DNA of 64,000 nucleotides from Candidatus Omnitrophota bacterium (GTDB lineage: Bacteria > Omnitrophota > Gorgyraeia > Zapsychrales > Zapsychraceae): NCBI GenBank assembly GCA_020429915.1, contig JAGQKV010000018.1, positions 5,770 to 69,769 on the forward strand, in the 5' to 3' direction. Below are positions 2 through 21,901 of the stretch, piece after piece. The notes below the pieces were generated by a model, which was not told the origin of the DNA, did not search any database, and was given only the letters and a program-made list of their open reading frames with translations. Each line of letters begins with the position of its first letter. Positions within the stretch are counted from its first letter, which is position 1. The translations under genes and the position numbers were made by a program.

Positions 2-475
2 CGCCGTTGCGCGCACAAGAACGGGGCGGTGCTTCAGCCGGAGGAGCTGGAAGACCTGCACAACGACTTCTTTCTCTGTCTGCTGGAAGACAACAGCCGC
101 CGACTGCGGGCCTTCCGGGGCGACGCCATGCTGTCCACCTATCTGGGACGGATCGTTTTTAATCTGACCGTCGATTATCTCCGCCGGCGTCGAAGCCACT
201 GTTCGTTCGACGAATTCATGCTCACGTCCCGGGCGGACAGCGCCGATGAGGACTCGCCGCTGGACCAGGCGATCAGTGATGATCTTATCGAACTCGTCCG
301 CCGCTGCATGCCCCAACTCCCGGAAAAGGACAGAGGGATTATCGATCTGAAAATCTTTCAACGGCTGAGCGTCAATCAGATCGCGGACGAACTGGGTCTG
401 AAGGTGGAAACCGCCCGGGCACGGATCCAGCGGGCCCTGGAGAAACTACGGAAATTAGTGAAAAAAGTTCATTAG
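2..475 (+). CDS. RNA polymerase ECF-type sigma-70 factor, 5'-partial (reading frame open to the window edge)
   Basis: The region 2.1-2.2 pattern (FF..L...F.G.S...TYL..I..N...D.LRRRR) and a region-4 helix-turn-helix (LSVNQIADELGLKVETARARIQRALEKLR) are both visible. The frame has no stop upstream of the first ATG at 29. Confidence 0.8.
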   Translation, partial: RRCAHKNGAVLQPEELEDLHNDFFLCLLEDNSRRLRAFRGDAMLSTYLGRIVFNLTVDYLRRRRSHCSFDEFMLTSRADSADEDSPLDQAISDDLIELVRRCMPQLPEKDRGIIDLKIFQRLSVNQIADELGLKVETARARIQRALEKLRKLVKKVH

Positions 476-499
476 AAACAGCGAAAGTATCCGTCAACT

Positions 500-1168
500 A
501 TGCCGAAGGACAACACACCTGAAAAATTCAACATCACCGATGAAGCCGTCGCCCGGTATCTGGAAGGGGTGTGCAGCGCCGGTGAAAAAGAGCGGATCGA
601 AGAGGCGATGAAAAAAGACCCTGCCTTCAGAAAAGAACTGGATGACCTGCGCGAGATCGTCGGCGATTTCGATCCGAATGCCGGCACCGGTGTCCCCAAG
701 CACGTGGTCCGCCGCGCACAAGACCTCGTCCATCCCCGTTACGGCGCGCTTTTTATCGACATCCTCGCGGAAATAGCCGATGGCGCGTTCCGGCGCCTGT
801 CCACCGCGGCCACTGTCCTGTGCGGTCCGCAAACGGCTGAGCCGGTCATGCTGCGCGGGGAATCGTTCGTCCCTAAGCAGAATATCCTAGTCGAAAAAAG
901 GGTGGGGGACCTGGACATCCAGGTGGCGGTCGGCATCCATGCGGACAACCGTCAGATTACGGTATGCCTCCGCCGGGCGGACACCGGCCGGGACGCCGAC
1001 GGCGTCCGCGGATTACTTTTACTTGAAGGACAGGAGCTCGAGTCGCATCTGAGCGCCCGGGGCCGCATCGCCTTTGACGAGGTCGGCGACGGGGAATATT
1101 TTGTGGAACTGCGGCAGGGCGACGCATTGCTGGGCGCCGTCAAAATAAACCTGACTTCGCATGGCTGA
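500..1168 (+). CDS. anti-sigma factor-like protein (soluble, no TM segment seen)
   Basis: Lies 25 nt downstream of the ECF sigma gene. The N-terminal ~50 aa resemble an anti-sigma domain (VARYLEGVCSAGEKERIEEAM). Its 3' end overlaps the next gene by 8 nt. Confidence 0.5.
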   Translation: MPKDNTPEKFNITDEAVARYLEGVCSAGEKERIEEAMKKDPAFRKELDDLREIVGDFDPNAGTGVPKHVVRRAQDLVHPRYGALFIDILAEIADGAFRRLSTAATVLCGPQTAEPVMLRGESFVPKQNILVEKRVGDLDIQVAVGIHADNRQITVCLRRADTGRDADGVRGLLLLEGQELESHLSARGRIAFDEVGDGEYFVELRQGDALLGAVKINLTSHG

Positions 1169-2894
1169 GCGCGGCGCATCCCTCATACTGGACGTACAGG
1201 CCCGCGACGGGCAGATGACGCTCAGTCTGCACGACACCCGCTGTGCGGTCCGCGGGGTGGAAGACCATCCCGTTTCGTTTCCCGCGATACAATCCGCGTC
1301 GCAGCGCATCTACGGCCTCATTCAGCGCGCACATGAGATCGGCCGGTTCGATCCGGATATTAACGCGCAACTGACCGCGGCCGGGCGGGAACTTTTCGCG
1401 CTATTGATACCCGGCACGATCCGCGCGGCGCTTACCGAATCCCGGGCGGAACACCTGTTGCTGATTCTTGACGAAGGATTGCTCGGCATCCCGTGGGAGC
1501 TGGCGCATACCGGCGGGGATTTCCTCTGTATCAAATTCAATGTCGGCCGACAGATGCGTACCCGCAGGCCGCACCGGCCCGGACGCCACCGGACGGCCGG
1601 CCGCCCGTACCGTCTGCTGATCCTGGCCGACCCCTGCGGAAATCTGCCCGCGGCGCAAAAGGAGATGCAGGACCTCCGCAAAAAACTGGAGCAGGGCAAG
1701 GACCGTCTGGAGATCTCCACCAAATCCACCCGGATCACGCGCGACTACGTGGAACGCCATCTGCACCGGTATGACATCGTGCATTTCGCGGGTCACAGCG
1801 AGATTGATCCGCAGGCGCCGGAGAAGGGGGGCTGGGTCCTGACCGACGGCATCTGGTCGATCACGGACATCCAGCGGCTGGGTGCCCGGGACAGCCAGCC
1901 GGTGCTGGTCTTTTCCAATTCCTGCCGGTCAGCGTTTGACGGGCACAACGATACCCTGCACCGGGCCGGGGAGGAGATATCCGGCATCGCCAACGCCTTC
2001 ATCCTCAACGGCGTCCGCCACTTCGTCGGGACCCTCTGGAATGTCCCGGATGCCTCGGCGGGGACATTCGCCGCGGGATTCTACGCCCGACTTCTGAAAG
2101 GCGACGCCATCGGATCCGCTTTAAAGACGGCACGGCAGCAGGCCGCCTCCGCTGCCGGCGCGCATCAGCTGACCTGGGCGAACTACATTCTCTACGGCGA
2201 CCCGGCCACCGTCATCGTCGGTAAGAAAACATATCCCCGGCTGCGCCGTCTGGTCCCGGCGGCGGCCGGCGTTCTGGTATTGGCCGGGATACTGACGGCC
2301 ATCCTGGTGCAGCGGCAGGACCGGATAACGCAACGTTCCCGGCAGGCCGTCGTGGCCGAACAGACGGTGACGATCACCGGCGAGGAGGACGCCCTGCTGA
2401 AGGTGATCTTTGCCAATGAGCGCGTGCCGACCTATGTGTGGGAAGAATTTATTACCCGCAACGAAGAAGGCCTGCGCGCGGTGGACGGCCGGCTCGCGCC
2501 CGGCGTCAAGGCGTTGCGCATCAAACGAAACGGCGACCTGCACATCGAACGGGGAGATTATTTTCTGGCCGCCGAACAGTACCGGAAGGCCTTATCGTAC
2601 GTTTCAGGCGGGGATGCCGGGCATCTGTTTCTGCGCAGTATCCTGACGCTCGACCTGATCCAGGCCCTGGTGGAATCGGACCGCCTGCAGGCGGAGGCCC
2701 CGCTGAAAGAGTTTCGTACGGCCTTTGCCGCGGATCGCGCCCGCTTCACCGACTCCCAGCTGGCGTTTTTAATGCGCCGTTTCCAGCTCATCCGGATCTC
2801 TCTGTTCAAACTCGGGCTGAAAAACTCTCAATTTTACAACGAGCTGGATTCGGTGTATGATCAAGTCAAAGACACCCGCCGGACACGACCTTAA
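1161..2894 (+). CDS. CHAT-domain (caspase-like) protease, single TM then a ~160-aa C-terminal domain
   Basis: The CHAT His/Cys dyad context is present: HFAGHSE and VLVFSNSCRSAF. A hydrophobic span LVPAAAGVLVLAGILTAILV follows. The start overlaps the upstream gene by 8 nt. Confidence 0.8.
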   Translation: MAERGASLILDVQARDGQMTLSLHDTRCAVRGVEDHPVSFPAIQSASQRIYGLIQRAHEIGRFDPDINAQLTAAGRELFALLIPGTIRAALTESRAEHLLLILDEGLLGIPWELAHTGGDFLCIKFNVGRQMRTRRPHRPGRHRTAGRPYRLLILADPCGNLPAAQKEMQDLRKKLEQGKDRLEISTKSTRITRDYVERHLHRYDIVHFAGHSEIDPQAPEKGGWVLTDGIWSITDIQRLGARDSQPVLVFSNSCRSAFDGHNDTLHRAGEEISGIANAFILNGVRHFVGTLWNVPDASAGTFAAGFYARLLKGDAIGSALKTARQQAASAAGAHQLTWANYILYGDPATVIVGKKTYPRLRRLVPAAAGVLVLAGILTAILVQRQDRITQRSRQAVVAEQTVTITGEEDALLKVIFANERVPTYVWEEFITRNEEGLRAVDGRLAPGVKALRIKRNGDLHIERGDYFLAAEQYRKALSYVSGGDAGHLFLRSILTLDLIQALVESDRLQAEAPLKEFRTAFAADRARFTDSQLAFLMRRFQLIRISLFKLGLKNSQFYNELDSVYDQVKDTRRTRP

Positions 2895-3047
2895 ATTTTT
2901 TTTATAAAATTTGTCAGACTTTGCGAACGGTGCCGTCAACTACCATGACGGCCGCGCTTCGCGGTCCCGTTCAGCCATAATACAGACCAGGGCCACCGCC
3001 CGCGTCATATATCCAGTTATCCAAAATCGTAACCGGGGGAGAGTGTT

Positions 3048-6000
3048 ATGAAAAAGATAATCTTTGCACTGGGGCTGGGTGTCGTCCTGGCTGCCGGAAC
3101 CGCTTGGGCGGGATTCGACGGCCCGAACATCCGCGTCGATCATGAACCGACCAGCCTCAACGCCGTCAAAGGAAAGGTGGCGGCCGATAACGCCGGTCAC
3201 ATATACGTGGCGTGGGAGGACGAACGCAGCGGAGCGGGCGTTTACCTGAATTATTCCCACGACAACGGCGGCACCTGGCAGAGCAGCGACACCTTCCTCG
3301 AAATCCCCGGCAGTTCCTATCTGAAAGACCTCAAGATCCTCACCGACCAGTCCGGTCATGTTTATGTCACCTGGATTTACATCCTCAACAGCGCCAAGTA
3401 TGTGGCCTTCGGGTCGTCCTCCGATTACGGCGCGACCTGGTCCACGCAGACGGTCAACGTCGGCGAATCCGGCTGGTGGGTGGATGACGTGGATATGGAC
3501 CATGATGAGTCCGGCCACGTCTGCCTGACGGCGAGCGAGGGGGGATCGTTTCCGCTCAATCTCTACAGCAACTGTTCCGCTGATTACGGCGCGACATGGA
3601 TGGGCACGCACGTCAAGATCAACACCAATAACCCGTCGAGCGGACAGACGCAACGTGATATCAAAGTCTGCATGGATGACGGGGGCCACGTCTACACGGC
3701 CTGGGTCGACGGCCGCGACGGGGTCAGCGGAGGCTGGAAGTATGTCTACTCCAATCATTCCAGTGATTACGGCCAAAGCTGGGCGCAGGAACAGCGCATT
3801 GAACCGCCCTCTTATGCCCAAAACGCGGATAATCCCCAGATTGCCTGCGACAACAACGGCAATGTCCATGTCGCCTGGCATTCTTTTGACGGTCAATTTT
3901 ATCAAAATGAAATTTTCTACAATCACTCCGCGGACTACGGAGTGACATGGCCTAACCGTCAGACGTTCACTACGACAGGCCATTATCCCCGGGTGCAGGC
4001 CGGTGCCGGCGGTAAAGTTTATGTGACCTGGACCGACACATCAAATTCACCATACCTGACGATCCGTTTCCGCCGCTCCACGGACGGGGGAAACTCCTTT
4101 GATTCCGAGGTCCGGATCAACACCAGTCATGACACCGAGCAGGACCACTACGCCTTGAAGGCAGCGGGAAACAAGGTCGGCGTGCTGTGGGAGAATGTGG
4201 AACCGTGGGAAACGATCTACGCCAAATTTTCAGAGGACGCCGGGGTGACGTGGCAGGCAGAGGATATCGATGTCAGCAACGGAGGCTATAACAGCGACCT
4301 CCCTGATCTCGCGATGAGCGGCGGCGGCGAGATGTATGCCGTTTGGCAGGACAACCATACCGCCGGGTACAACATCTATTTCAAAACGGGCACCCCCGAC
4401 GGCCAGGCCGACGTGTCGGTCTTCCAGGACTTCGAACCGGGTAACGGCTCGGATGAGTACGGGTGGGCCTACCCGGGCGCGACGGCGGAACTCTCCACCG
4501 AACAGGTCCACGGCGGCACCCGCGCGTGGAAGGTCAGCTCCGGACAGATGTTTGCCGGGACCGGACTGCAGTCGCAGACGCAACGCTGGGATATGGACTT
4601 CCGTCCGGACATCAACGACCGCCTCACCTTCTGGATCTGGTCGGATCCCGCCACTCCCGCCGACAACACCGTGCTGCTCAAGCTGACGGACACCGGGACT
4701 TTTTCCACCGGTTTTGACGTATGGACGACCGAAAGCGCGGCGTATCAGGAGTGGACGCAGATCGAGGTCCTGTTCAGTCAGCTCCCGGACGGCTTTGATT
4801 TGAATCATGTGAACAAGATCGAGATCTTCAACTACGATGCGGGGACCTATTATTTCGATGACTTCGAGGTCACGGCCAAGGACCGGGTGTATCAGGCCTT
4901 TGAAGACTGCGCCGACGCCGGCGACTGCGGCTGGGCCTGGGGCGGAACCATCGGACTGCAAGGGACCATCGGCATCGAGGAAGAATACGTTTATGAAGGG
5001 GAGACCGCCTGGCGGCTCAACGCGACCGAGAACTGGGCGGGCACCGGGGTCAGGGCCCAGGTCAAGAGTTATGACGCCGTCAATGACGAACAGTCGTACT
5101 GGCATGTGGACCTCAATCCGGAGTTTAATGACCGGCTGACGTTCTGGGTCTACAATCTCGCCGAGAACGGCTTGGCCAACAATCTGGCCGTGCAGTTTTT
5201 CGATCATGACCAGCACTTTGAGGACCCGGTCGTTTACTGGACCACGGAGCGCGCGTTCTACGGGGAGTGGACCAAGCTGACCGTTCCCTTTGATGAACTG
5301 CCGCCGTCGCTCGACCTGACGAACATCAACAAGATCCAGTTCCAGGTGTACTGGAAAGGGGTTTACTACTTCGACGATATCCGCGCCACGCGCGGGGCAC
5401 CGGCGTTCGACAAGGATGTGCTGCCGGACGGCAACATCGCATGGGGCGCCGTACCCGGGGCCTTCGCCTATGAAGTTCAGCGCAGTGACGACGGGGATGA
5501 AGGCTGGGAAACGATCTTCACCGGCGGCGCGACCGGGTTCGGGTACAACGGCCTGAGCCCGAAGTATCTGCGCGTCCGCTGGAGCGAACAAACGTCCTTC
5601 CTTAATCCGAACCGTTACGTCGGCGACTGGCAGAGCCCCGTGCTGTATCAACCGCCGCAACCGGTCATCGATTACGACGCCCTGGCCGAGGGCGACATCG
5701 CCTTCATCATGACGGGCCAGGGGACTCAGTACCAGGTGGAGTCCGCAACCGGCCCCGACGGTCCGTGGTCGCTTCTCTACGACGGTCCGTCGACGGTCCT
5801 CACTGATCAGGCCGAGGATTACGAGTACTACCGCGTGCGCGCCGTCAGAGAAGTCAGCGGACAGATCGTCGATCAGACCGACTGGAGCCCGGCGGTCAGC
5901 TACCGTCCCGGCTTGTACGTCAAAGCGGTCAACCAGCAATTGAAAGAGGACAACGGGCAGGGCGGCACACTGGTCCTGCGCGGCATCAATCTGGGGAACC

Positions 6001-7589
6001 TGCTGTTGATCGAGCCGGAGTTTACCGGCATCGGCGGGAATTTCACCGGGTCCATTGCCACGGATGACGATGACTACGGGATCCGGGAAAACCTGATCGC
6101 CCGCTTCGGCGACGACGACCTGCTGCTCGATTATCAGGCCGCGTATATCACCGAGATGGACTTCGACCATATCATGCGCACCGGGGCCAATTTCGTGCGG
6201 CTGCCGATTTACTACCGCGTCGTCGAAGACGCGTCCGGCAATTTTACCCGGTTCGACAAGATTGACGAGGTGATCCGCCACTGCGCCAACCGCGGCCTGT
6301 ACGTGCTGCTCGACCTGCACGGCGCGCCCGGGGCACAGAGCGAGGAACATCATGCCGGACGGATGGATTACAACAAACTGTTCGAGGACTCGTCGCTCGG
6401 CGAGGACTATCGCGCCCGCACCGTGGCCTTCTGGGATGCCGTGTCTGAACGCTACAAAGACAATCCTGTTGTCGTGGGTTACGATATCCTCAACGAGCCG
6501 TTCGGCGCCGACGACCATGACCCCACCTTTGTCGCGGACAACGGCCTGTGGACCCTGTACGATGCCATCTACGACGCCATCCGGGCCAACGACAGCCAGC
6601 ACCTGATCGTCATGGAGACGATCCCGTCCGAATTCGACTGGAACACGCTGCCCGATCCGGACGACTACAACTGGCAGAACGTGATGTATCAGGTCCACTA
6701 CTATTGCTTCCTGTTCGATGAGCAGGGCAACATCAACGGGATCTGCAGCACGGAAGGCCATGAAGAGTATCTCTTCGGCAAGATCACCAATGCCAAGCAG
6801 TCCCAGTACAATGTCCCGGTCCTGGTCGGGGAGTTCAACGGGTTCGACAACCGCGCCAACTGGATCACCCATATGCAGAATTATACGAATGAAGGCTGGA
6901 GCTGGGCGATGTGGTCCTACAAGACCCATCCGTCGCTGGCCAACTGGGGACTGTTCGTGCATGACATCGACGACGCGGACCTGCCGGATGTCACCGTGGA
7001 CAGCGCGCAGACCCTCCAGCAAAAATTCGCCCGCTACACCACAGCCCGGCATATCGCCGACACGTCGCTGACCATGCTGTTGTCTCAGTACCTGAAACCG
7101 GAGGCGCCGTCCATTACGGTAAACATCACCCCGGCATCGGCAGTTGCGGCAGGGGCGCAATGGCGCCTGCGGCGCGGGCCGGACACCAGCTGGCACGACA
7201 GCGGAGAGACCATCGACAACCTGCGGCCCGGCACTTATAAGGTAGTCTTCAAACGATTACACGGCTTTGATAAGCCGGCCAACCAATACGTGACCGTGAT
7301 CGACGCGCCGGTCACCGTGACCGGGGATTATGTGGAGCGTACGGACGGATCGGTAACCGTCACCATCCAACCCTCCGCCGCGGCCGCGGTCGGGGCGCAG
7401 TGGCGCCTGAGCAGCGGACCGGACACATCATGGAAGGACAGCGGCGACACGATCGTCGTCCCGAAAGGCCGCTACCGGATCCGCTTCAAGAAGATCAACG
7501 GCTACTACCGTCCGAACACCATCCGCATCAATGTCGGCTACGGCCAAGCGGTGAGCAGGACGGGGTTTTATATGCCGAAGAGTTATTAA
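3048..7589 (+). CDS. secreted multidomain glycoside hydrolase: N-terminal BNR/Asp-box propeller, two CBM-like jelly-roll modules, FN3-like region, GH5 catalytic domain, two C-terminal ~80-aa repeats
   Basis: Signal peptide MKKIIFALGLGVVLAAGTAWA. At least seven Asp-box motifs (SHDNGGTW, SSDYGATW, SADYGATW, SSDYGQSW, SADYGVTW, STDGGNSF, SEDAGVTW). GH5 signatures: GINLGN, acid/base NEP in VGYDILNEPFG, nucleophile in VLVGEFNGF. An RBS-like GGGGGAGAG precedes the ATG. Confidence 0.85.
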   Translation: MKKIIFALGLGVVLAAGTAWAGFDGPNIRVDHEPTSLNAVKGKVAADNAGHIYVAWEDERSGAGVYLNYSHDNGGTWQSSDTFLEIPGSSYLKDLKILTDQSGHVYVTWIYILNSAKYVAFGSSSDYGATWSTQTVNVGESGWWVDDVDMDHDESGHVCLTASEGGSFPLNLYSNCSADYGATWMGTHVKINTNNPSSGQTQRDIKVCMDDGGHVYTAWVDGRDGVSGGWKYVYSNHSSDYGQSWAQEQRIEPPSYAQNADNPQIACDNNGNVHVAWHSFDGQFYQNEIFYNHSADYGVTWPNRQTFTTTGHYPRVQAGAGGKVYVTWTDTSNSPYLTIRFRRSTDGGNSFDSEVRINTSHDTEQDHYALKAAGNKVGVLWENVEPWETIYAKFSEDAGVTWQAEDIDVSNGGYNSDLPDLAMSGGGEMYAVWQDNHTAGYNIYFKTGTPDGQADVSVFQDFEPGNGSDEYGWAYPGATAELSTEQVHGGTRAWKVSSGQMFAGTGLQSQTQRWDMDFRPDINDRLTFWIWSDPATPADNTVLLKLTDTGTFSTGFDVWTTESAAYQEWTQIEVLFSQLPDGFDLNHVNKIEIFNYDAGTYYFDDFEVTAKDRVYQAFEDCADAGDCGWAWGGTIGLQGTIGIEEEYVYEGETAWRLNATENWAGTGVRAQVKSYDAVNDEQSYWHVDLNPEFNDRLTFWVYNLAENGLANNLAVQFFDHDQHFEDPVVYWTTERAFYGEWTKLTVPFDELPPSLDLTNINKIQFQVYWKGVYYFDDIRATRGAPAFDKDVLPDGNIAWGAVPGAFAYEVQRSDDGDEGWETIFTGGATGFGYNGLSPKYLRVRWSEQTSFLNPNRYVGDWQSPVLYQPPQPVIDYDALAEGDIAFIMTGQGTQYQVESATGPDGPWSLLYDGPSTVLTDQAEDYEYYRVRAVREVSGQIVDQTDWSPAVSYRPGLYVKAVNQQLKEDNGQGGTLVLRGINLGNLLLIEPEFTGIGGNFTGSIATDDDDYGIRENLIARFGDDDLLLDYQAAYITEMDFDHIMRTGANFVRLPIYYRVVEDASGNFTRFDKIDEVIRHCANRGLYVLLDLHGAPGAQSEEHHAGRMDYNKLFEDSSLGEDYRARTVAFWDAVSERYKDNPVVVGYDILNEPFGADDHDPTFVADNGLWTLYDAIYDAIRANDSQHLIVMETIPSEFDWNTLPDPDDYNWQNVMYQVHYYCFLFDEQGNINGICSTEGHEEYLFGKITNAKQSQYNVPVLVGEFNGFDNRANWITHMQNYTNEGWSWAMWSYKTHPSLANWGLFVHDIDDADLPDVTVDSAQTLQQKFARYTTARHIADTSLTMLLSQYLKPEAPSITVNITPASAVAAGAQWRLRRGPDTSWHDSGETIDNLRPGTYKVVFKRLHGFDKPANQYVTVIDAPVTVTGDYVERTDGSVTVTIQPSAAAAVGAQWRLSSGPDTSWKDSGDTIVVPKGRYRIRFKKINGYYRPNTIRINVGYGQAVSRTGFYMPKSY

Positions 7590-8141
7590 GCAATAAGGGA
7601 AATCGCTTTCAAAATACTACGCAATTATGGCAATTTTAGATTGTCGACGAGAACCAAAACATTTTTGATAGATGCAGCGGACGGAAAGCATCCGCACAGA
7701 CATAACTATCTGGTTTTCCGTGAATTATGAGCCCTGGTCATTTTCAATTCATTCTGGTCAGATATATTGTAGCCTGTTACCATAAGAAGAATTCCCCGAT
7801 CGCACCTTCAATAGATATCCTGGTTCGCATTTCGAGTATGCGATAGCTCACAACGTCTTTATTGAATCAGGATAAAAGAATTGATCCCAATTGAGAATGA
7901 TTCGTCCGACCGGACGATTCTGAAATCTTCCCGCCGTCAGATTGCATTTTGGCAATCTGACGGATTACACGAGGGAACTGATGCTAAAACCGTATAGATT
8001 TTTCTCAAAATATTTTGGATAATTCGATATACTCTTCGGCATTAATAGATAGGGGGCCAAACATCGAGTACTTACCTTGTATCTTTCACCGTAATTTCTA
8101 AGCCAACTTGATTATTATTGCCGATTCGTCCTTATTCTCTT

Positions 8142-8221
8142 AGGGTAGCTCCCTGAGAGAACCCCAAAGCAATTAAAAGAGCGGATTTCTGGTGCACCAG
8201 CCGGGGATCCGCTCTTTTTTT
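8142..8221 (+). repeat. ~80-bp structured repeat, copy A (AGGGTAGCTCCCTGAGAG ... GCGGAT-loop-ATCCGC + T-run)
   Basis: Small hairpin AGGG-tagct-CCCT, then 17 nt, then hairpin agagcggat/atccgctct followed by TTTTTTTT (8178-8221). The loop carries the 12-bp palindrome ctggtgcaccag. Confidence 0.55.
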
Positions 8222-8309
8222 GGGGACAGTTATTCGCCATCATCTGTCTGTCCTTATCTTGGATGATTTCTATATATTCAGACAACCGATATACATATGG
8301 AGGCTATCG

Positions 8310-8783
8310 ATGCCGCTAAGCATGAAAGGTCGACTTCGATCATCCGATTGTCATGCGTTTACGCTTATTGAAATAATGCTGGTGCTGATTATTATGGTGA
8401 TCCTGGCCACTATAAGCAGCCGTATGTTGTTCGGAAGTTTGCCGAAGGCAAAAAATCGGACCGCCTATATCGAGATCAGAACTACTCTCAAGAGCGCCCT
8501 GGAGGAATATTATTTGGATACGGGAGACTATCCCACCACGGAGGAAGGACTAGTGGCACTGGTAAGAAAACCGAGCGAATCACAACATTCAGATAAATGG
8601 CTGGGGCCTTATCTTGAAGACCTGCGGCATCCGATAGACCCGTGGGAGAGAAAGTACATGTATCAATATCCCGGTCAACACAATACACATAAATATGATC
8701 TTTATTCCTTGGGAAAGGATGGCGTGGAAAGTGATGACGATATCGTGAATTGGCTTGAGGAAGGTTCCTTACTGGATTCATAA
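8310..8783 (+). CDS. gspG: type II secretion system major pseudopilin GspG (type IV pilin-like N-terminus)
   Basis: Prepilin motif AFTLIEIMLVLIIMVILA. GspG core IDPWERKYMYQYPGQHNTHKYDLYSLGKDGVESDDDIVNW. RBS GGAGG at 8299-8303. Codon usage is markedly AT-richer than neighbouring genes. Confidence 0.85.
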   Translation: MPLSMKGRLRSSDCHAFTLIEIMLVLIIMVILATISSRMLFGSLPKAKNRTAYIEIRTTLKSALEEYYLDTGDYPTTEEGLVALVRKPSESQHSDKWLGPYLEDLRHPIDPWERKYMYQYPGQHNTHKYDLYSLGKDGVESDDDIVNWLEEGSLLDS

Positions 8784-8811
8784 AAGGACGAAAACCAACA
8801 GCCAAACTTCT

Positions 8812-8886
8812 CAGGGTCGCTCCCTGTGAGGTGGAATACAAATTATTGACGGAACTCTGGTGCGCCGGCCGGATTTCCGTTTTTTA
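8812..8886 (+). repeat. ~80-bp structured repeat, copy B (AGGGTCGCTCCCTGTGAG ... CGGAA-loop-TTCCG + T-run)
   Basis: Same architecture as copy A. The first 18 nt match 16/18 and the hairpin loop (ctggtgcgccggccgg) is similar. It ends in TTTTTT at 8881-8886. Confidence 0.55.
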
Positions 8887-8967
8887 TGGCAAGCACATAT
8901 CCGGGAAGGATCCAACAAATGTGGGGGACGACATATAGTGTGAAACAACTCTAACAGGGGGTGCGAA

Positions 8968-11900
8968 GTGAGCAGACGATTTCAAACCAAACGCTCTAAA
9001 TGTTTCGGCAAAGTCAGGAATGATCACGGTTGTCAAATATTGTATCGCCATCTGTTCCGGGTGGGAATGTTGGCGATACTCTTCCTCATGCGCGGTTCCT
9101 GTGCGGCCGCTGATACGGTCATTACCAATATTCAGGAGTTGCAGGACATCAATCTTAATCCGGGAGGATCATACATTCTCGCCAATGATATCAACGCAGC
9201 CGAAACGGCGGATTGGAACAACGGGGAAGGTTTTGATCCCATTATGGATTTTAACGGAACGTTTGACGGGAAGGGTTATACAATCTATGGCTTGACCATT
9301 AACCGCCCCACCACGGACAAGGTCGGTTTATTCGGGGCCATCGTTAATGACGGACATGTCAGTGATGTTTCCCTTTATGGGGCAAATATCTCCGGTAACA
9401 ACAAGGTCGGCACGCTGGCCGGTTATCTCTTTTTGGCCGATGTCGCGGATATCGCGGTCCATCAAAGTCAGGTAAACGGCTCCCAGCGGGTCGGCGGGTT
9501 GGTCGGGGAAAGTTATAACGGGCACGGCATTACAGACGCACTGGTCGATGACGTTGGCGTGTCAGGCATCTCGGAAGTCGGGGGATTGGTGGGACGGACA
9601 TGGGATGGAACCATAAATACCATCCTGCGGGCCGCAGTCACGGCCGATGTCACGGCCATCAGTAATATGGCCGGCGGCATCGCGGGCTACACCAAAAGCA
9701 GCGACATCCTTGAGAGTTTTGCGGAGGGTTCGGTCTCCGGGAATATGGGCGTCGGTGGCATTGCCGGATATACGATCGAAAATGCCGGAATCCATAACTG
9801 TTACGCCGTCAACAGCGTTGCCGGCAACCAATATACGGGGGGAGTAGCGGGACTTTTTTATTCCTACCATGACGGCGTCAGCAACACATACTTTGCGGGA
9901 ACCGTTGACGGCAATAGTCCGGTTGGCGGATTTATCGGAGCCAAGTTTGCCGGGACATCGGTCGCAAACTACTGGGATACGGATCTGAATTCCGGTCTAA
10001 ACAGCGTCGGCAGCGGTAACGGCGCCGGCATTACCGGTAAGACCACGGCCGAATTGTCGCAATTGGCCACCTACCTTGGTTGGGATTTTGAAACGGTATG
10101 GCTGATCAACGGATCATATCCGCGGCTGCAATCACTGAACGATATACCCGGTGGCGGCGAAACCCCTTACTCGCCGGCAACACTTGCCATCCAACCGGGA
10201 ACCAATTTTCTGTCCAATCCGTCCGGAGTCCCGATTCACATTCAGGACGCGCGTTTACGCTTTCGGGCGACGGGCGGTACCAACTCCAATAATGCCGATA
10301 CATTACAAGTATATGATCCGGTACTGGGCGGGTTCCGGCTTTTCTTTTTCGTGAGCAATGCGGAATACATTCCCGAAGAATTTCGGCACAAGTGGTACGA
10401 TACCGGCAACGGTCAAATTGCGGACTATGTTCTAAATCCAGGGACAGGCTTTATCTACACAAACAAGGCGACGGAATCCTTCCCGTGGACGGAGTACCCC
10501 GTGACCGGTTTGCTGCGTTCGCGCACCAGCGTTCATTTGACTCCCAATTACAACCTGATCGCGCACCCTTACGGTGTCGCCGTGGATTTAAATGAGACGC
10601 GGCTGACCGAGATTGCCGAGCCAGGTGATCATGTCTATATCGATGACAACGGACTCCTGCGTTATGACTGGGTTACCGGCTCGGGTGATCCAGAGCTCGA
10701 TAATCATTTTGTGGCGGAAGGCACCTCCGAAGTATCTCCGATTCCGTTGAAGGCGGGGGAGGGTTTTTACTTCTTTAACGCCGCCACCGAAACCAAGATT
10801 TGGCGGGTAATGAATCCCAACTTCCGGCGTATAGCTGTCAGCGGAATCGAACCCGGACCGGACAATTTCCTGTCCAATCCGATGGACAAACCGATTAATA
10901 TTCAGAAAGCAGCCTTTACGGAAAACGCCGTCGGTAATATCGACGCCTACCTGGCCGACAATATTTCCGTTTTCAATTCGGCGAGCGGACTTACGGAATA
11001 CCTCTACTTCATCGGAGAAGATCCGACCGTACCTGAAGAGTACCAGAATAAGTGGTTCGATCCGGTCCAAATGAAACCATCCGAGGTGCTTTTACAACCG
11101 GGAGAGACCTTCACCTACGACAGTAAAGCGGCCGACAGCAGGGTTTGGGTTGAGGGGGCAAGTACATCAACGCCCGTCGCGGTGTATGTGGAAATTGTGA
11201 ACGGTTTCAATAATATATCCAACCCCTTAAGCGTTCCCATTCACCTGCAAAGTGCCGGCATCCAGAATCCGGTCTATTCTTCTAACTGCGCCCTTGCTGA
11301 CCGAGTCGTTGTTGATGGACAGCCGTCATTTTATTGCCATTTAACCGGTAATCCGCTTTCCTGGAGCCTGAATCTGCTATTGGAACCGGGCGCGGGTATA
11401 TCTTATCTTCGTCAGGGGGGAGATACCTGGTGGCAAGAAAAGTTACTGGCCGGAAGCAAGAGTCGCATCGACGGTAACCAGCTGAAGATTCAACGCCGTC
11501 TCTCCAACGGGGCATTGGGTCAGGAAGAGGTGTTTACCATAAAAGGAGTCAATTACTCACCCGTCGACATAAACGAAACGGTATCAAGTTACGAAGAGCA
11601 TCGTACGCACATGACCTTTGACAATGACAAGATAGAATCAGACTTTCAGTCAATGCTGGACATGGGCGTAAACACCATCCGGACCTACGTGGATCCCGGA
11701 CTGGATGTTGAGGCCTGGAAGGACTTCATGGATAAAGCCTATGAATACGGATTGATGGTATTGATCAATGTCCGGACGTCCGACTTCGGTTCGTTTTCCT
11801 TTGCCACCCCGCACGTATGCCCGGCGCCGACCCAGTTTGAATACTCGAAGGTCGTCGGACACTTTAAAGATCATCCCGCACTGTTAGGTTGGATGATCGG

Positions 11901-13200
11901 AAACGAATGGAATATCAATCTGGAAAACAATGTCGTTAAGCCGTTCTATTGCTACAACAGTGTTCATGATGCAGCCGAAGGGGTCGAACGCACGGCAGCA
12001 GGTTACTTATCGTGGACTCAGGGTATTAAGGAACTGGACCCGGATCACATTGTCGCATCATCTTTGGGTTTCATTCAAACATACCAGATGAACGGCGGGT
12101 ACATTGATCTGTTTACTCCGGAGGATGAGGTCAATTTCGGTGAATTCGCGGACATCTTCGCTACCGCTCCGAGTGTGGACCTGTGGGCCTTCAATCTGTA
12201 TCGAGGAAATAGTTTCAACACATTCTTCGCACAATGGAAACGCGCATTTCCCAATAAACCGATCCTCATTACCGAGTTCGGCACTGACGCCTATGACCAT
12301 GTTGCGGGATCTGTCAACCCACAGCAACAGGCCGATACTTACCGGGCGCTATGGAGAGAAATCATCCGCAATGCCTCAGCCATAGATCCGGACAGGCAGG
12401 TTGTCGGCGGCTTTGCCTTCGAATGGAATGACGAGTGGTGGAAGGCAGGCAATCCGGCCAATCACGATGCCAGCGGGTTCCAGTTGAAGGTATGCTATGG
12501 TAATCAGGTCCCCGGCGGGACCGCCCCAACCGTGTGTTTTTACGGTCATCCAGACGATGGGCATTCCAATGAGGAATATTACGGTCTGCTGGATACTGTC
12601 CGCAATCCGCGCGACGCCTACGCCACGATGATGACCGAGTATCAAAGTTCACTCATACCCTCTGAAAACGTATTGCTGGGAGCCCGCAGCCAGACCGGTA
12701 TCGGCGGCCAGGGATCCGAGTTGTCTTATGCTGCCTTCTTTAAGAACGGTGCCCCCCTGGCACTGCGTTATGCAACCGAGGGAGGCACACCGGCGGCACG
12801 CGGGTACAATGTAATGGTCGTCGACGGTAATACCGGCACACCAAAAGACCTGCGCACATTCGACATGTGGCCTGCGGGTGTGGCCGTTCCGCAATGCACC
12901 GAATTCGAAAATTACGCGATGGACCCGGGCAACTTTTCGCCGGGAGACATCGTCCTGGTAGCTGTTGCCGATACAGGGACACCGATCAATGTCCCCTTCC
13001 AGGACTGTCAGGATGCGCTGGTTAAACTGGGAAGCACGGACAACCTGGCGACACTCGGCGGCAATAAACCGTACGTTCTCATCTCTCAAATGAATGCGAC
13101 GGGCAACGCGACAAAATGTATCGAGGAAATTGGGACGCAGTCGAACACAATCATCGACGAGAACTGTACTGTGTCGCTGCCTGAAGTAGTTCTGCCATAA
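8968..13200 (+). CDS. secreted GLUG-repeat protein with three ~170-aa novel repeats and a clan GH-A (TIM-barrel) glycoside hydrolase domain; C-terminal ~180-aa domain of unknown type
   Basis: GTG start (alternative ATG at 9067 just before the hydrophobic signal MLAILFLMRGSCAAA). GLUG-type N-terminus (FDGKGYTIYGLTI...VGLFG, repeated VGGLVG/VGGIAG). Repeats begin NFLSNPSGVPIHIQ, NFLSNPMDKPINIQ and NNISNPLSVPIHLQ. Hydrolase motifs GVNYSP, MIGNEWN and ILITEFGTDAYD. Confidence 0.8.
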   Translation: MSRRFQTKRSKCFGKVRNDHGCQILYRHLFRVGMLAILFLMRGSCAAADTVITNIQELQDINLNPGGSYILANDINAAETADWNNGEGFDPIMDFNGTFDGKGYTIYGLTINRPTTDKVGLFGAIVNDGHVSDVSLYGANISGNNKVGTLAGYLFLADVADIAVHQSQVNGSQRVGGLVGESYNGHGITDALVDDVGVSGISEVGGLVGRTWDGTINTILRAAVTADVTAISNMAGGIAGYTKSSDILESFAEGSVSGNMGVGGIAGYTIENAGIHNCYAVNSVAGNQYTGGVAGLFYSYHDGVSNTYFAGTVDGNSPVGGFIGAKFAGTSVANYWDTDLNSGLNSVGSGNGAGITGKTTAELSQLATYLGWDFETVWLINGSYPRLQSLNDIPGGGETPYSPATLAIQPGTNFLSNPSGVPIHIQDARLRFRATGGTNSNNADTLQVYDPVLGGFRLFFFVSNAEYIPEEFRHKWYDTGNGQIADYVLNPGTGFIYTNKATESFPWTEYPVTGLLRSRTSVHLTPNYNLIAHPYGVAVDLNETRLTEIAEPGDHVYIDDNGLLRYDWVTGSGDPELDNHFVAEGTSEVSPIPLKAGEGFYFFNAATETKIWRVMNPNFRRIAVSGIEPGPDNFLSNPMDKPINIQKAAFTENAVGNIDAYLADNISVFNSASGLTEYLYFIGEDPTVPEEYQNKWFDPVQMKPSEVLLQPGETFTYDSKAADSRVWVEGASTSTPVAVYVEIVNGFNNISNPLSVPIHLQSAGIQNPVYSSNCALADRVVVDGQPSFYCHLTGNPLSWSLNLLLEPGAGISYLRQGGDTWWQEKLLAGSKSRIDGNQLKIQRRLSNGALGQEEVFTIKGVNYSPVDINETVSSYEEHRTHMTFDNDKIESDFQSMLDMGVNTIRTYVDPGLDVEAWKDFMDKAYEYGLMVLINVRTSDFGSFSFATPHVCPAPTQFEYSKVVGHFKDHPALLGWMIGNEWNINLENNVVKPFYCYNSVHDAAEGVERTAAGYLSWTQGIKELDPDHIVASSLGFIQTYQMNGGYIDLFTPEDEVNFGEFADIFATAPSVDLWAFNLYRGNSFNTFFAQWKRAFPNKPILITEFGTDAYDHVAGSVNPQQQADTYRALWREIIRNASAIDPDRQVVGGFAFEWNDEWWKAGNPANHDASGFQLKVCYGNQVPGGTAPTVCFYGHPDDGHSNEEYYGLLDTVRNPRDAYATMMTEYQSSLIPSENVLLGARSQTGIGGQGSELSYAAFFKNGAPLALRYATEGGTPAARGYNVMVVDGNTGTPKDLRTFDMWPAGVAVPQCTEFENYAMDPGNFSPGDIVLVAVADTGTPINVPFQDCQDALVKLGSTDNLATLGGNKPYVLISQMNATGNATKCIEEIGTQSNTIIDENCTVSLPEVVLP

Positions 13201-13206
13201 TAATCC

Positions 13207-13236
13207 GGGGCAGCGCCCTCAATTGGGCGCTGCCCC
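13207..13236 (+). terminator. GC-rich hairpin (12-bp perfect stem, 6-nt loop) 7 nt after the stop codon; weak U-tract
   Basis: ggggcagcgccc-tcaatt-gggcgctgcccc. Confidence 0.5.
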
Positions 13237-13467
13237 ACAATTTGCACTACGGCTCGACAACTTGACTATTGAGATGCCGGAGCATACAATTCAATTAAAA
13301 TTCATGAATAGTAAGTCAGGCAGCTACACGCGCTACATGAACACAAATGCAAGTAATACAACTCACCCGGCCGACAGTTGGCTTTCATGTTAACGCCACG
13401 GGTAAGAATCTTAACGCTATTCGAAATCTACTTCTACAAAACCAAATTAACCGGAGTCATTTAACTC

Positions 13468-13740
13468 ATGAATGAAGAAGCGAAACCTCGCCAATCCGAA
13501 AATAAAGAAAAACTCCCCACCTCCGCCTACATCATGTGCGGCTGGCCGCTGGTGCTGGTTTTTGTGGGCGGGGCGCTCGGCGGGGGATTGGGAGGAGCGG
13601 CCTTCGCGATCAACTTCGAGATCTACAAATCCAGACTCCCGGTTGCGGTCAAGGTCATCCTCAACATCCTCACCGGCCTGTCCGCCGTCATCCTGTGGCT
13701 GGTCATTGGTACGTATATTCACGCGAAATTTAGCGGTTAG
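13468..13740 (+). CDS. small two-TM membrane protein, hypothetical
   Basis: Two hydrophobic helices with a Gly-rich stretch. GGAG lies 11 nt upstream. It sits in an AT-rich intergenic zone, so the call is weak. Confidence 0.35.
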   Translation: MNEEAKPRQSENKEKLPTSAYIMCGWPLVLVFVGGALGGGLGGAAFAINFEIYKSRLPVAVKVILNILTGLSAVILWLVIGTYIHAKFSG

Positions 13741-13844
13741 CGGACAATGTCTGGTGAACCGTAGGGGAACAGGGGAAAAACTTCCCGGCAGAAACTAACC
13801 GCCAACCGACCGAATTCGTACCCCTTGACCAACTCATTCGCGAC

Positions 13845-13873
13845 TTGACGCGTACTTCTATATTACATATACT
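13845..13873 (+). promoter_or_regulatory. sigma-70-like promoter candidate for the giant gene (-35 TTGACG, 17-bp spacer, -10 TATACT)
   Basis: Hexamers read directly. GGAGG RBS at 13937-13941 precedes the ATG at 13951. Confidence 0.4.
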
Positions 13874-13950
13874 ATTGATAGCGCGGCAACGCGCCTTTCC
13901 CATTCCCCATACAATCGTGACGGTCAACCGGCACCCGGAGGATTTGGCCG

Positions 13951-16900
13951 ATGTTCACGCAAATCCATAACAGGTCAGTACTTACAAAATATTATCAACG
14001 CCTGTCGCTGGCCGTGACCGTCCTGTTTACGGTCATGAGCCTGACCGTCCCCGGCACCGCCGCGGCGCAAAATCTGCCGACCACCAATATCGAATTACCC
14101 ATCCCCGGGGTCATGGTCCCGGCATCGAAAGATTACACCCCGGCCCTGATCCGCGGGCTGCGCGTTTATCCCGACAATCCGCTGATGTTCGATTTCGTCA
14201 TCGACAAGGGGGAGGATCTCCTCGACGGCGATGAACTGCAAACCACCTCGCAACGCCTGATCAAGTATTTCCTGGCCAGCCTCACCATCCCCGAAGACAA
14301 GATGTGGGTCAACCTGTCCCCGTATGAAAAGGACCGTATTATTTCTCCGGAACTGGAGGTCACGGCGATGGGCCGCGACCTGTTGGGCATGGACTACATG
14401 CTCAAACAGCTCACGGCGTCGTTGATGTACCCGGAGGACAAACTCGGCCGGGATTTCTGGGACCGCGTCAAGAAGAAAGCCATGCAGGAATACGGCACCA
14501 GCGACATCCCGATGAATGCCTTCAACAAAATCTGGGTGATCCCGGCCGCGGCCACGGTGTTCGAGCTGGACGGAACCGCCTATGTCGTCGAAAGCCGGCT
14601 GAAGGTGATGCTGGAGGAAGATTATTTCGCGCTGGCCAAACACGGCGAGCGGCCCCGCTTCATGTCGGAACGCGACGAGAAGGTCGTCAGCGGGATTACC
14701 TCCGGCGTGGTCCGCGATATCCTCATTCCGGAGATCGAAAAAGAGATCAATCAAGGCCGCCACTTCGCCAAACTCCGGCAAATCTACGACGCGATGGTCC
14801 TGGCGACCTGGTACAAACAGAACCTGCGCGACAGTTTGCTCGGTCAGGTCTATGTTGACCGGGCCCGGATGAAAGGGATCGACGAAATCAACGAGGCGAT
14901 GAAAGACCGCATCTACCAGCAATATCTCGATGCCTTTAAAGTCGGCGTCTACAATTATGTGAGGGAAGACTACGACGCCTCCCTGGACACAATGATCCCA
15001 CGCAAGTTTTTCTCGGGAGGGGCCTCGATGAACGTGTCCGCCGTTTTTCGCGCGCAGACCGCCGTCGCCGAGCTCGACCTTGATCAATTCGTCCGCTTTC
15101 TGACCCTGCTGGATTCGGGCCGCCTGAGCGATCCCAGCCGCCAACAGATCATCGCCCGTATTCAGGCCATGGAGGCCGCGGACCGGGACCGCATTCAGGA
15201 ATTGATCCAACGAAGGCCCATACCGGACGCGGGCATCGCGCGCATTGTGGAGGTCCAGATTTCGCTGCTCGAAAACGCCCCGACCGAACTCCGGGAGTTG
15301 GCCGACGCCGCCGTGCTGGGCGAACAGCCCGAGGCGCAATCCATACAAACCGTTACGCTGGACAACCGCCAATTGCGCCCGGAACAGGTGCTGGCCACGG
15401 TCGCCGAGGTCCGCCGGATGCTCGACGGGGCCGCTCCGGTGATCGATGTCCCGATGTACCCGATGCCGAACCAGAGCCGGCCGAAACTGCTGCTCGCCGC
15501 GATCCGGGAAGGCAAGGGAGACAATCCCATCCTCAACGCGCGCTGGCGCGACTACGAGGCCATCATGAACGCCTTGTGGGACGCAGCCGGAATCTTCGTG
15601 TACAAGGATTTCACCGGATCGGATTTTGAAGGAACTCCGGTCGAACGCAATTTTGCATTAGGCGACGTCGGGGGCAAGATCGCAGCACCCGCGGAAATGG
15701 GCACCGCGTTTTACGTCGACCTGCCGCAGGACCCCGAGGCTGTCGATGATCTGATCAGCCGCATCAATATCGCCCTGGATTCGTTCGAGGCCGAAGCGCG
15801 CGCAGTCTTCGACCAGAATCTGGCGGAACTGATGAGCCCGCAAACGGAGGGACAGGTGGTCGTCCTGTCGAATATCGATTTTGACACCGACGCGCTGGCC
15901 GTGGCACGTTTCCTGACTTCGGGGCGGGCGAATGTACTTGGGCTGATGGGACCGGCCAACCTGCCGTCGCTGGGATTTGTCGACGGCGAACGCCCCAAGG
16001 CGATCGGATTTACGCGCGCTCAGCTGGAGTCCGTGGGGATCAACGTACCCGAATCCGGCGTCATCGATTCGGATCAGCTCGCGCAGGTCGATCTGGAACC
16101 GATCCAGGAATCCATCCGCCGACTGGAGGAGCAAGAGGTCGGCAACATCAATTACACGCGCACGCGCGCCCTGGGCGAAATCATCACGGCGCTGAATCCC
16201 CGCCTCAATGAGCAAAGTCCGCTGACCGTTCAAATGGCGGAAGCCACCCAGCGCTTCATGCAGCCGTCGTACGGCTTTACCGGACCGGAAGATGTCTCAC
16301 CGGTCTTTCCGATCCTCGATATCCGCATCCGTGACGCCGTCGGTGCCGAGCGGACTATTTGGGTCCACCGCCGTTCGCCGGTGCTGACCGATGAGGTGGA
16401 GATCCTGGGGATCGGTCCGCAAACCGAGCGGGTCTGGCGCAGTATCGTCGAGAATGCCGCGGGAGTTATCGTGATCGGCGACACCGCCGGACTGGAAGGC
16501 GTCCTGGGCACAACGCCCGCGGGACAGCCCCGCATTCAAATCGCCTCCCGCGACGTCACCACACTTCAGGAGCTGAGCCGCGACACGTACTGGCGCGACC
16601 TGAGCAACCGTCTGCCCACATCCGGCAGCCTCAATGAGCTGGCCGCCCTGGCGGCCGACCCGGTGGAAATCGCCTCGACGGATGAGCAGTTTCAAATTCT
16701 TGACCCGCGCGGCGACCTCGCTTACGCAGGGGTGAAAGTTTATGTCGTTGATAACCTGTTGCAAGGCGTATTACGTATCGCCGAAGAGCAGGGGGTGCAG
16801 CTGGGACCGGACATGCTGTTGCATCCGGGTATCGTCGGCAAGGCCCTGTACTTTTCCCCGCAGGCTATTGAAATCATCTCCAGCCAGCCGCCTGAATACC

Positions 16901-19473: not shown

Positions 19474-19744
19474 ATAGGTCAACCGATTCTTGACGCGCTC
19501 CGGCATGCCCCTTATACTGACAGGGTAACGCAGATCATCACCGTCGACCAGAACAAATGTCGCGCATCGATCTCTTGCCCGATATGGCTCATAAATCCGC
19601 CATCCCAATAATTCCGGCCGTTGACCGGGGCCCCTCAGGCACCGCTCCCGTCAACAGCCGCCGCCCCGACGATTCACTCCCGAAAAAAACGCTGACGACC
19701 GCCGGTGACGATGTCGCAAAACAGACCGCCGTGGGGAACTTCGT

Positions 19745-21010: not shown

Positions 21011-21047
21011 CCGGGCGACCTTTACACACCTCACCGGGACACCTATA

Positions 21048-21731
21048 ATGATGCCGATGCTCAGCGACAAGGATTTCCACATCATCGATAGCAACGGCCG
21101 TCTGACCGTCCGGTTTGAGCCCGGCTTGGGGCTGCCAGAGTACGCCGTCGACTTTACCGATCCGACGTTGTTGTACCGAATTCGAAAGGGGGGAGGACGT
21201 ACCCAGGCGATCGCCAAGGCGGTGGGGATCAAAAAGGGCCGGGCGCTGCCCACCGTGCTGGACCATACCGCCGGCTTCGGACGCGACGCCTTTGTCTTGG
21301 CGGCGCTGGGCTGCCGCGTGCACATGCTGGAAAAATGCCCGGCGGTGCGCGCATTGCTGGCCGACGGGCTGCGGCGGGCCGCAACGGATTCGGAAATCGG
21401 CCATTGGGTGACCGAGCGGTTGAGTCTGCAGGACGGTGACGCGCCGCTACCGTTTGCTCCGCAGACCGTGTACCTCGATCCGATGTACCCGGCCCGCAAA
21501 AAATCAGCCGCTGTTAAAAAGGAACTACAGGTGCTGCGCGCCTTGGCCGGGGATGAAGACTTGACCGTGGCCTTGTTCGATCAGGCGATGGCGCTCGCCG
21601 CCGAACGCGTGGTTATCAAGCGCCCGGCGTCGGCGGCATTTATCATCCCGCAGAAGCCGGACGGGATTGTTGAAACGCCGAATCATCGGTTTGAAATTTA
21701 TAAGCGCATGACTTGTGACGCTTTGAAGTAG
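21048..21731 (+). CDS. rsmJ: 16S rRNA (guanine1516-N2)-methyltransferase RsmJ-like SAM-dependent methyltransferase
   Basis: VLDHTAGFGRDAFVLAALGCRVHMLEKCP and overall RsmJ-like length and order. Confidence 0.75.
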   Translation: MMPMLSDKDFHIIDSNGRLTVRFEPGLGLPEYAVDFTDPTLLYRIRKGGGRTQAIAKAVGIKKGRALPTVLDHTAGFGRDAFVLAALGCRVHMLEKCPAVRALLADGLRRAATDSEIGHWVTERLSLQDGDAPLPFAPQTVYLDPMYPARKKSAAVKKELQVLRALAGDEDLTVALFDQAMALAAERVVIKRPASAAFIIPQKPDGIVETPNHRFEIYKRMTCDALK

Positions 21732-21743
21732 CGTATTAAATCC

Positions 21744-21892: not shown

Positions 21893-21901
21893 AAACACTT
21901 T

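Follow-up and report, generated by a model that had tools for sequence, protein, structure and literature searches.

How might a sigma factor that answers to signals from outside the cell be released when its presumed inhibitor is a soluble protein? Sigma factors of the extracytoplasmic function (ECF) type constitute one of the principal signaling systems of bacteria, and in almost all of the cases that are understood control relies on a membrane anti-sigma factor that is lost through site-1/site-2 proteolysis, on a partner switch, or on a fused regulatory domain. The question is raised by a 64,000-nt stretch of a Candidatus Omnitrophota contig (JAGQKV010000018.1; this whole stretch is referred to here as the window), which begins with three same-strand open reading frames (ORFs) for an ECF sigma factor, an anti-sigma-like protein (ASL) and a membrane-anchored protein with a caspase-like CHAT domain. 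An earlier inspection of the letters and ORFs, the sequence-only reading, had proposed that the CHAT protein senses through its C-terminal domain and cleaves the soluble anti-sigma factor, or else that it is a sigma-controlled effector.

The evidence assembled below tilts, though not steeply, toward the first proposal, a self-contained three-protein ECF module in which the CHAT protein would cut the soluble anti-sigma factor and so release the sigma factor. The module is a conserved and apparently uncharacterized variant of protease-controlled ECF signaling. To our knowledge, CHAT-dependent control of ECF sigma factors is known only from two recent, defense-linked cases, Craspase and DdvA; if the proposal is true, the module would represent a third route of ECF control, one that is housekeeping in nature and phylum-wide and whose caspase-like protease is itself a membrane-spanning protein.

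Three coupled genes and their products

The sigma ORF lies at positions 2 to 475 of the forward strand, where it comprises the C-terminal 157 codons of the gene, the first 41 being beyond the window edge. It is followed on the same strand by the gene for ASL, a predicted soluble anti-sigma factor of 222 aa (500 to 1168), and by that for the 577-aa CHAT protein, a putative membrane-anchored caspase-like protease (1161 to 2894). The arrangement of three consecutive same-strand genes is thus as first described, as is the 8-nt overlap between the ATG of the CHAT gene and the stop of ASL (ATGGCTGA), while the gap between the sigma and ASL genes measures 24 nt in place of the 25 nt originally given. 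A near-identical contig from ENA, L003, reaches further upstream and contains both the complete sigma gene (198 aa, L003 2934-3530) and a gene for a 240-aa secreted protein, and a 73%-identical relative, L001, carries the same five genes, encoding the 240-aa protein, sigma, ASL, the CHAT protein and a 1513-aa GH5 protein. NCBI lists the exact CHAT sequence, from a Candidatus Omnitrophota metagenome-assembled genome (MAG), as 'CHAT domain-containing protein'.

The sigma scored 76.2 bits against TIGR02937 (sigma70-ECF; cut-off 42.9) and matched the Pfam profile Sigma70_r4_2 with E=1.5e-11, while the Sigma70_r2 score fell under its cut-off because the window edge truncates the protein. With sigma2 and sigma4 as its only domains and the ECF superfamily model above cut-off, it belongs to the ECF (group IV) sigma factors, and its closest solved relatives in a PDB comparison were AlgU, sigmaE and SigW. 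A second, conventional pair of ECF sigma and zf-HC2 anti-sigma genes is present at L003 338-1451, approximately 2 kb upstream of the module, and the anti-sigma factor of that pair contains a hydrophobic segment.

Assignment of the third protein to the CHAT family was strongly positive in a hidden Markov model (HMM) search (PF12770; E=1.8e-40, 139.6 bits against a cut-off of 24), the Pfam envelope placing the catalytic domain at aa 73-347 (1377..2201, + strand). The His-Cys dyad that the sequence-only reading had picked out in the motifs HFAGHSE and SNSCRSAF is present and aligns with the catalytic dyad (His212, nt 1794-1796; Cys255, nt 1923-1925; + strand), and both residues are invariant in 86 of 86 sequences, as are several Asp and Gly positions and a PWE motif. 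The invariance of the dyad argues for an active protease. An AlphaFold2 (AF2) model of the protein, with a predicted local distance difference test score (pLDDT) of 76, matched the separase protease domain, Csx29 (E=7e-9), SAVED-CHAT and DdvA in Foldseek with a probability of 1.00. An HMM match above the gathering score, a caspase-like fold and the His-Cys dyad therefore all identify this protein as a member of the CHAT family.

The CHAT protein has no signal peptide, and its hydropathy profile peaks at a single transmembrane (TM) helix, aa 364-383 (2250..2309, + strand). The single helix had been correctly anticipated, but not its position, which was given as aa 392-414 and so was off by about 28 residues; with the helix at aa 364-383, the C-terminal tail extends over aa 384-577 (2310..2891, + strand), or about 194 aa rather than the approximately 160 aa first supposed. 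In nearly all homologues one helix is found at this same position, directly after the CHAT domain. Over 77 homologues, the 15-residue flanks of the helix contain 399 Lys and Arg residues on the N-terminal side versus 174 on the C-terminal side, and the N-terminal flank is the richer in 71 of the 77. Domain fusions point the same way. In two Desulfobacterota variants (L011 3636-6824 and L030 5155-8394), CHAT is preceded on its N-terminal side by an adenylate/guanylate cyclase domain, and in both of these, as in two further Desulfobacterota proteins (L013 5719-8442 and L053 2932-5436), the tetratricopeptide repeats (TPR) are followed by LpoB/CsgG/FlgO-like domains. Given that the cyclase is of a cytoplasmic type and the LpoB/CsgG/FlgO-like domains of a periplasmic type, the fusions together with the positive-inside charge bias argue for the topology originally proposed, with a cytoplasmic protease and an external tail. 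The cyclase domains also suggest that there is a second-messenger branch within the Desulfobacterota versions of this CHAT signaling protein. An ASL-CHAT fusion was considered for the CHAT ORFs of 900-1090 aa in this phylum and rejected, ASL being a separate ORF; the N-terminal extension of the scanned proteins of 1062-1079 aa is the nucleotide cyclase domain.

The tail itself is helical and TPR-like and is predicted to be extracytoplasmic. Helical repeats cover aa 407-574 of the AF2 model, and in profile searches the window copy gave weak matches to TPR_2 and TPR_11 where homologues gave strong TPR matches; it is also shorter than the TPR domain of approximately 330 aa that is usual among the homologues. 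The outside domains vary on a shared CHAT-TM core, as in P0006 (697 aa), whose outside part consists of a Pro/Ser/Thr-rich linker and a beta-rich domain, in P0004 (723 aa; L005 89-2260), and in the protein of L008, with 850 aa of TPR. Such variability fits a swappable sensor module.

ASL possesses no hydrophobic segment, its top Kyte-Doolittle window of 19 residues reaching 0.92, in agreement with the earlier statement that it lacks a TM segment. Of some 75 ASL ORFs in the family, no more than 2 reach the TM threshold by hydropathy, both marginally, and ASL is predicted to be soluble across the family. Its assignment as an anti-sigma factor was less direct. Alone, the window copy matched anti-sigma models below threshold (zf-HC2, E=0.016; NF010501, E=7.6e-4), so the assignment rests on its family, in which 52 of 69 homologues match zf-HC2 (PF13490). 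When the family profile was compared with solved structures, the best matches were anti-sigma domains, that of DdvA first (E=0.0019) and then those of RsiW, RslA, ChrR and RsrA. The similarity to anti-sigma domains that had been supposed for the product of 500-1168 is found in the family, which has the N-terminal helical domain of zinc-associated anti-sigma (ZAS) factors, and lies below threshold in the window copy. Adjacency and family membership make ASL a putative inhibitor that would bind its cognate sigma.

The AF2 model of ASL, of moderate quality (pLDDT 68) and built on an alignment of 11 sequences, has four N-terminal helices within aa 14-76 and strands over aa 85-220 that form a C-terminal beta-sandwich; a fold search returned generic beta-sandwich matches only (E>1e-3), which indicate the fold class and nothing further. 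Between these parts is the most conserved stretch of the family, a loop at aa 104-119 (809..856, + strand) in which G104, G109, P114, L118 and R119 each show conservation of 90% or more across 69 sequences. Residues 108-125 have a pLDDT below 50 in the model. Given that the loop is conserved yet flexible, it is a candidate site for recognition or cleavage by a protease. An exhaustive profile search recovered about 586 ASL cluster representatives (50% identity) at E<=1e-10, nearly all of them approximately 230 aa long and matched over their full length. Those relatives that are named are annotated 'hypothetical protein', and placing this family in a signaling module would be of value for annotation.

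Conservation of the gene order was examined from both ends of the operon. A scan with the CHAT alignment, using one genome per species, found 321 relatives, and gene order was counted in the best 80 loci. These are mostly from Omnitrophota (including MAGs labeled 'Planctomycetales'), with a minority from Desulfobacterota, and their CHAT proteins are about 32-38% identical to the window protein over aa 1-360. After clustering of all ORFs, ASL occupies position -1 from CHAT in 73 of the 80 and sigma position -2 in 69, always on the strand of CHAT; loci lacking either at the expected position are mostly cut by contig ends, and in the Desulfobacterota loci separate ASL genes were detected with the family HMM. 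In the reciprocal test, 80 metagenome loci were retrieved with an ASL profile from a narrower alignment. The next gene after ASL encodes CHAT in all 61 loci with enough downstream DNA (in 3 of them after correction of the start codon), and sigma lies 5' of ASL in 60 of 63. The spacing from ASL to CHAT across the family is mostly -8 to +16 nt, and the triad is retained at about 20% ASL identity (roughly 20-35% protein identity) and across at least two phyla. The order of sigma, anti-sigma and CHAT genes is thus conserved in related genomes (about 70 of 80 genome loci and 61 of 61 metagenome loci), and the arrangement is beyond chance.

A candidate promoter motif and the proposed release of the sigma factor

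A bipartite ECF-like motif, GTTAGA-N15-CGTCTA, occurs 102 times in 63 of the 80 loci, compared with about 1.5 matches in shuffled sequence. Of the 97 matches with the exact 15-nt spacer, 93 are in sense orientation 5' of three gene types, namely the ASL gene (52 matches), the gene downstream of CHAT for a 521-aa secreted BNR/Sortilin-like protein (34) and a gene for a 160-aa Y1_Tnp-like protein (7). The 64-kb window contains exactly two matches with at most one mismatch, versus 0.18 expected. One, ATTAGA-N15-CGTCAA (471..497, + strand), spans the sigma stop and runs almost to the ASL start codon, and the other, GTCAGA-N15-CGTCAA (2913..2939, + strand), lies 19 nt past the CHAT stop, with a further 108 nt between it and the gene for the 1513-aa protein. 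Both are at positions homologous to the sites of the family motif, and L001 retains the first site, and the second with two mismatches. With two mismatches allowed, the scan of the window was at noise level (9 found, 5.7 expected). From this co-location we infer that the sigma factor is the reader of the motif, and that it probably drives both the anti-sigma-CHAT pair, as feedback, and the adjacent secreted BNR gene, as output.

The sigma gene appears to be transcribed differently. An autoregulatory ECF promoter upstream of it was sought by bipartite k-mer enumeration and inspection and was rejected, since what these yielded was a sigma70-type extended -10 element (TGnTATAAT), located about 8-12 nt 5' of the sigma ATG in most Omnitrophota loci (160 nt upstream inspected); examples found by inspection are at about 5990-6000 in L017 and about 4600-4621 in L018. 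In the lineage of the window, TGGTATGAT is located 5' of the gene for the 240-aa protein. Transcription of the sigma gene thus seems to rely on an extended -10 promoter of housekeeping type, and the distance of the element from the ATG implies that the sigma mRNAs are leaderless or nearly so.

Taken together, these features suggest how the module might operate. Its parts would be the ECF sigma, a cytoplasmic ASL composed of a ZAS-type N-terminal domain, a loop and a beta-sandwich, and a bitopic protein with the order CHAT, TM, TPR. An extracytoplasmic cue would be detected by the periplasmic TPR-like domain, and the cytoplasmic CHAT domain would then be activated, plausibly by induced proximity or by a conformational change along the single TM helix. 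The activated protease would cut the anti-sigma factor, the likeliest place being near Leu118-Arg119 in the conserved loop, and RNA polymerase would be guided by the freed sigma to promoters of the form GTTAGA-N15-CGTCTA. One of these, 5' of the anti-sigma-CHAT pair, would provide feedback and reset, and another, 5' of the next gene, would turn on a secreted BNR-repeat protein, which in the window would be the 1513-aa BNR/GH5 enzyme. The proposal is directly testable, given that the module supplies candidates for the substrate and for the loop that is cleaved, a promoter motif, a predicted target gene and, for mutation, a catalytic Cys. We are rather more hesitant, and on balance slightly doubtful, about a broader version of it, in which a caspase-fold, one-protein transmembrane transducer replaces the two-protease cascade and serves as the standard envelope-to-gene pathway of a phylum, Omnitrophota, that is largely uncultured, with cyclase-bearing variants in Desulfobacterota.

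Several observations weigh against release by CHAT cleavage of ASL. ASL is a candidate substrate of CHAT, put forward on computational grounds. The window ASL lacks zinc ligands and by itself is below the threshold of every anti-sigma HMM; where the family consensus has HLxxCxxC, the HxxxCxxC zinc finger, it has A36, D40 and F43, so that the motif that marks ZAS factors is missing from it, and the motif has also been lost from ASL of the close relatives L001 and L007. Considered alone, the window CHAT protein has near-balanced charges in its TM flanks (5 versus 4). In both the window and L001, a mere 2 nt separate the end of the first promoter motif from the ASL ATG, which would mean either a leaderless transcript or a vestigial, decaying site. 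The N-terminus of the BNR/GH5 protein in the window could not be established as an orthologue of the 521-aa BNR protein (BLASTP E=0.001; hhalign 59%). Finally, the synteny partly reflects shared ancestry within one phylum, since recurrence extends to an upstream gene for an H+-pumping pyrophosphatase (H+-PPase) and to housekeeping genes on the downstream side.

It was also necessary to consider whether ASL and the CHAT protein together constitute a two-piece membrane anti-sigma factor, in effect a DdvA that has been split, with ASL docking through its beta-sandwich on the CHAT-TM-TPR protein so as to tether the sigma, and release following from autoprocessing of CHAT or from a conformational change. 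Among solved structures the ASL family matches DdvA best, in its N-terminal anti-sigma domain (E=0.0019), and DdvA joins an anti-sigma domain, a TM helix, TPR and CHAT in a protein for which autoprocessing has been proposed (PMC11506125); the strict pairing of ASL with CHAT, and the conservation of an ASL C-terminal domain that is unneeded for sigma binding, are also what such docking would lead one to expect. The CHAT domain of DdvA, however, is periplasmic and without part of the substrate pocket, whereas the one described here is predicted to share the cytoplasm with the anti-sigma factor and belongs to a family in which the dyad is invariant, and the conserved flexible loop of ASL looks more like a substrate motif. 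We therefore regard the tethering arrangement as unlikely, if deserving of serious attention.

The other possibility put forward by the sequence-only reading, that CHAT is an output of the sigma factor and cleaves other cytoplasmic targets in stress remodeling or cell death while the anti-sigma factor is inactivated in another way, has gained in one respect, in that 52 loci and the window have the ECF-type motif directly 5' of the ASL-CHAT pair, and CHAT expression is hence probably sigma-dependent. CHAT and caspase-like proteins are, moreover, effectors in other bacterial conflict systems (PMC8195603). On the other hand, feedback of this kind is ordinary in established ECF systems, where one cognate promoter serves an anti-sigma factor together with its regulators; a role in input is the better fit for a TPR tail in the periplasm and for C-terminal domains that vary and resemble sensors; there were no matches to defense-system models; and for the window copy, a soluble anti-sigma factor devoid of a zinc site, no other route of inactivation is apparent. 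An effector role thus seems improbable to us. Mere adjacency of genes without a shared function, or spurious ORFs, has in its favor only the general point that ORF lists are produced mechanically, and is refuted by the strong HMM matches, the order conserved in about 70 genome and 61 metagenome loci, and the invariant catalytic residues; it can be given practically no credence. Cleavage of the soluble anti-sigma factor by the membrane-spanning CHAT protein is the reading that we carry forward.

Neighboring genes

The gene that follows the triad in the window, a probable member of the regulon on the strength of its upstream motif, encodes a 1513-aa secreted protein (3048..7589, + strand) consisting of a signal peptide, BNR/Asp-box repeats, two modules, a GH5 cellulase domain (PF00150, E=2.2e-31) and C-terminal repeats. 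The two tandem modules, aa 454-611 and 626-792, are paralogous to the 240-aa secreted protein (E=1.7e-45 and 1.6e-25, respectively), whose gene lies just upstream of the window (L003 2231-2953) and overlaps the start of the sigma gene. A 53%-identical homologue of the 240-aa protein is encoded directly 5' of sigma in the Omnitrophota chromosome OY759724.1 (L007 3871-4671); Pfam and PDB searches with the 240-aa protein gave no significant match. The protein might be a substrate-binding co-sensor for the module, and its paralogy to modules of the BNR/GH5 enzyme raises the possibility of a link to polysaccharide sensing in the lineage of the window.

In other loci the corresponding neighbor is the 521-aa BNR/Sortilin-like protein, found at L018 9350-10915 and in 40 other loci. 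Its C-terminal region of about 170 aa has no Pfam assignment and is more conserved than the beta-propeller part. An IS200-like gene of the Y1 transposase family (PF01797), encoding about 160 aa, adjoins the triad in approximately 10 loci and has the motif 5' of it in 7; such genes are found at L009 3972-4454 (-), L010 339-827 (-) and L017 8350-9030, and in L014, L023, L038 and L051. REP-like palindromes (repetitive extragenic palindromic type; GGGACAC...GTGTCCC) surround the Y1 transposase-gene regions, and the combination of gene, motif and palindromes suggests an ECF-controlled, REP/RAYT-like unit.

Beyond the GH5 gene, on its downstream side, the window's G+C content falls from about 0.60 to 0.43 (7500-9000), and very large secreted or surface-type proteins follow, from 8968 to 23064. 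They include a 1410-aa protein with GH72-like and ILEI-like matches (8968-13200), a 1840-aa protein with no Pfam match (13951-19473), a leucine-rich repeat (LRR) protein (19745-21010) and a DUF2807 adhesin-head protein (21853-23064).

Comparison with known systems

Full-text literature searches for a triad of sigma, anti-sigma and CHAT found only papers on Craspase, DdvA, SAVED-CHAT and CalpL, and CHAT goes unmentioned in the main text of the ECF classification paper (Casas-Pastor 2021). In setting the locus against the canonical route alone, the sequence-only reading overlooked the precedents of Csx29/Csx30 and DdvA.

The canonical route, regulated intramembrane proteolysis (RIP) of RseA or RsiW by DegS/RseP or PrsW/RasP, is like the module proposed here in that proteolytic cleavage of an anti-sigma protein in response to an extracytoplasmic signal frees an ECF sigma. 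It differs in employing a site-1 plus site-2 pair, whereas the candidate protease here is a cytoplasmic cysteine protease of caspase fold, and the absence of a TM segment from ASL sets the module apart from the RIP-controlled RseA/RsiW type. The CalpL-CalpT-CalpS system likewise combines a protease, a soluble anti-sigma factor and an ECF-like sigma, but CalpL is a CRISPR-associated protease of the Lon type that is not anchored in a membrane and senses cyclic oligoadenylate by means of SAVED (10.1101/2024.05.08.593097). Having neither a Lon nor a SAVED domain, the module is not CalpL-like.

By its parts, the closest relative is DdvA-DdvS of Myxococcus xanthus, in which a single-chain anti-sigma factor with a periplasmic TPR-CHAT region is proposed to process itself before cleavage by RseP (PMC11506125). 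In both systems the anti-sigma domain that controls an ECF sigma is of ZAS type and occurs in association with CHAT, TPR repeats and a TM helix. DdvA, however, is a single chain that runs from the anti-sigma domain through the TM helix to a periplasmic TPR-CHAT region, whereas here the anti-sigma factor is separate and soluble and the membrane protein is inverted, with CHAT in the cytoplasm, then TM, and TPR outside. The intramembrane cleavage by RseP that is proposed for DdvA would not be needed for a soluble anti-sigma factor, and the module is not of the DdvA type, in which ZAS domain, TM helix and periplasmic TPR-CHAT form one chain.

The closest working resemblance is to Craspase/CASP, in which Csx30 inhibits an ECF-like sigma until the TPR-CHAT protease Csx29 cleaves it and so lifts the inhibition (PMC10028731). 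The module is not itself a Craspase, which is defined by Cas7-11, a CRISPR array and a Csx30-type substrate. A search of the window for a CRISPR/Cas context found no Rfam match and no short-range direct repeats, not every ORF in it having been scanned for Cas domains, and the PADLOC defense-system models gave no match apart from a weak one to BovA. In Craspase the input is RNA-guided target binding, whereas here it would be received by a membrane-spanning protein with an outside TPR domain; the TPR of Csx29 is N-terminal to CHAT, whereas here it is C-terminal and beyond the TM helix; and ASL is ZAS-type, with no similarity to Csx30 detectable in a profile search. What the two have in common is that a cytoplasmic CHAT-family protease, a soluble sigma inhibitor and an ECF-like sigma are encoded together.

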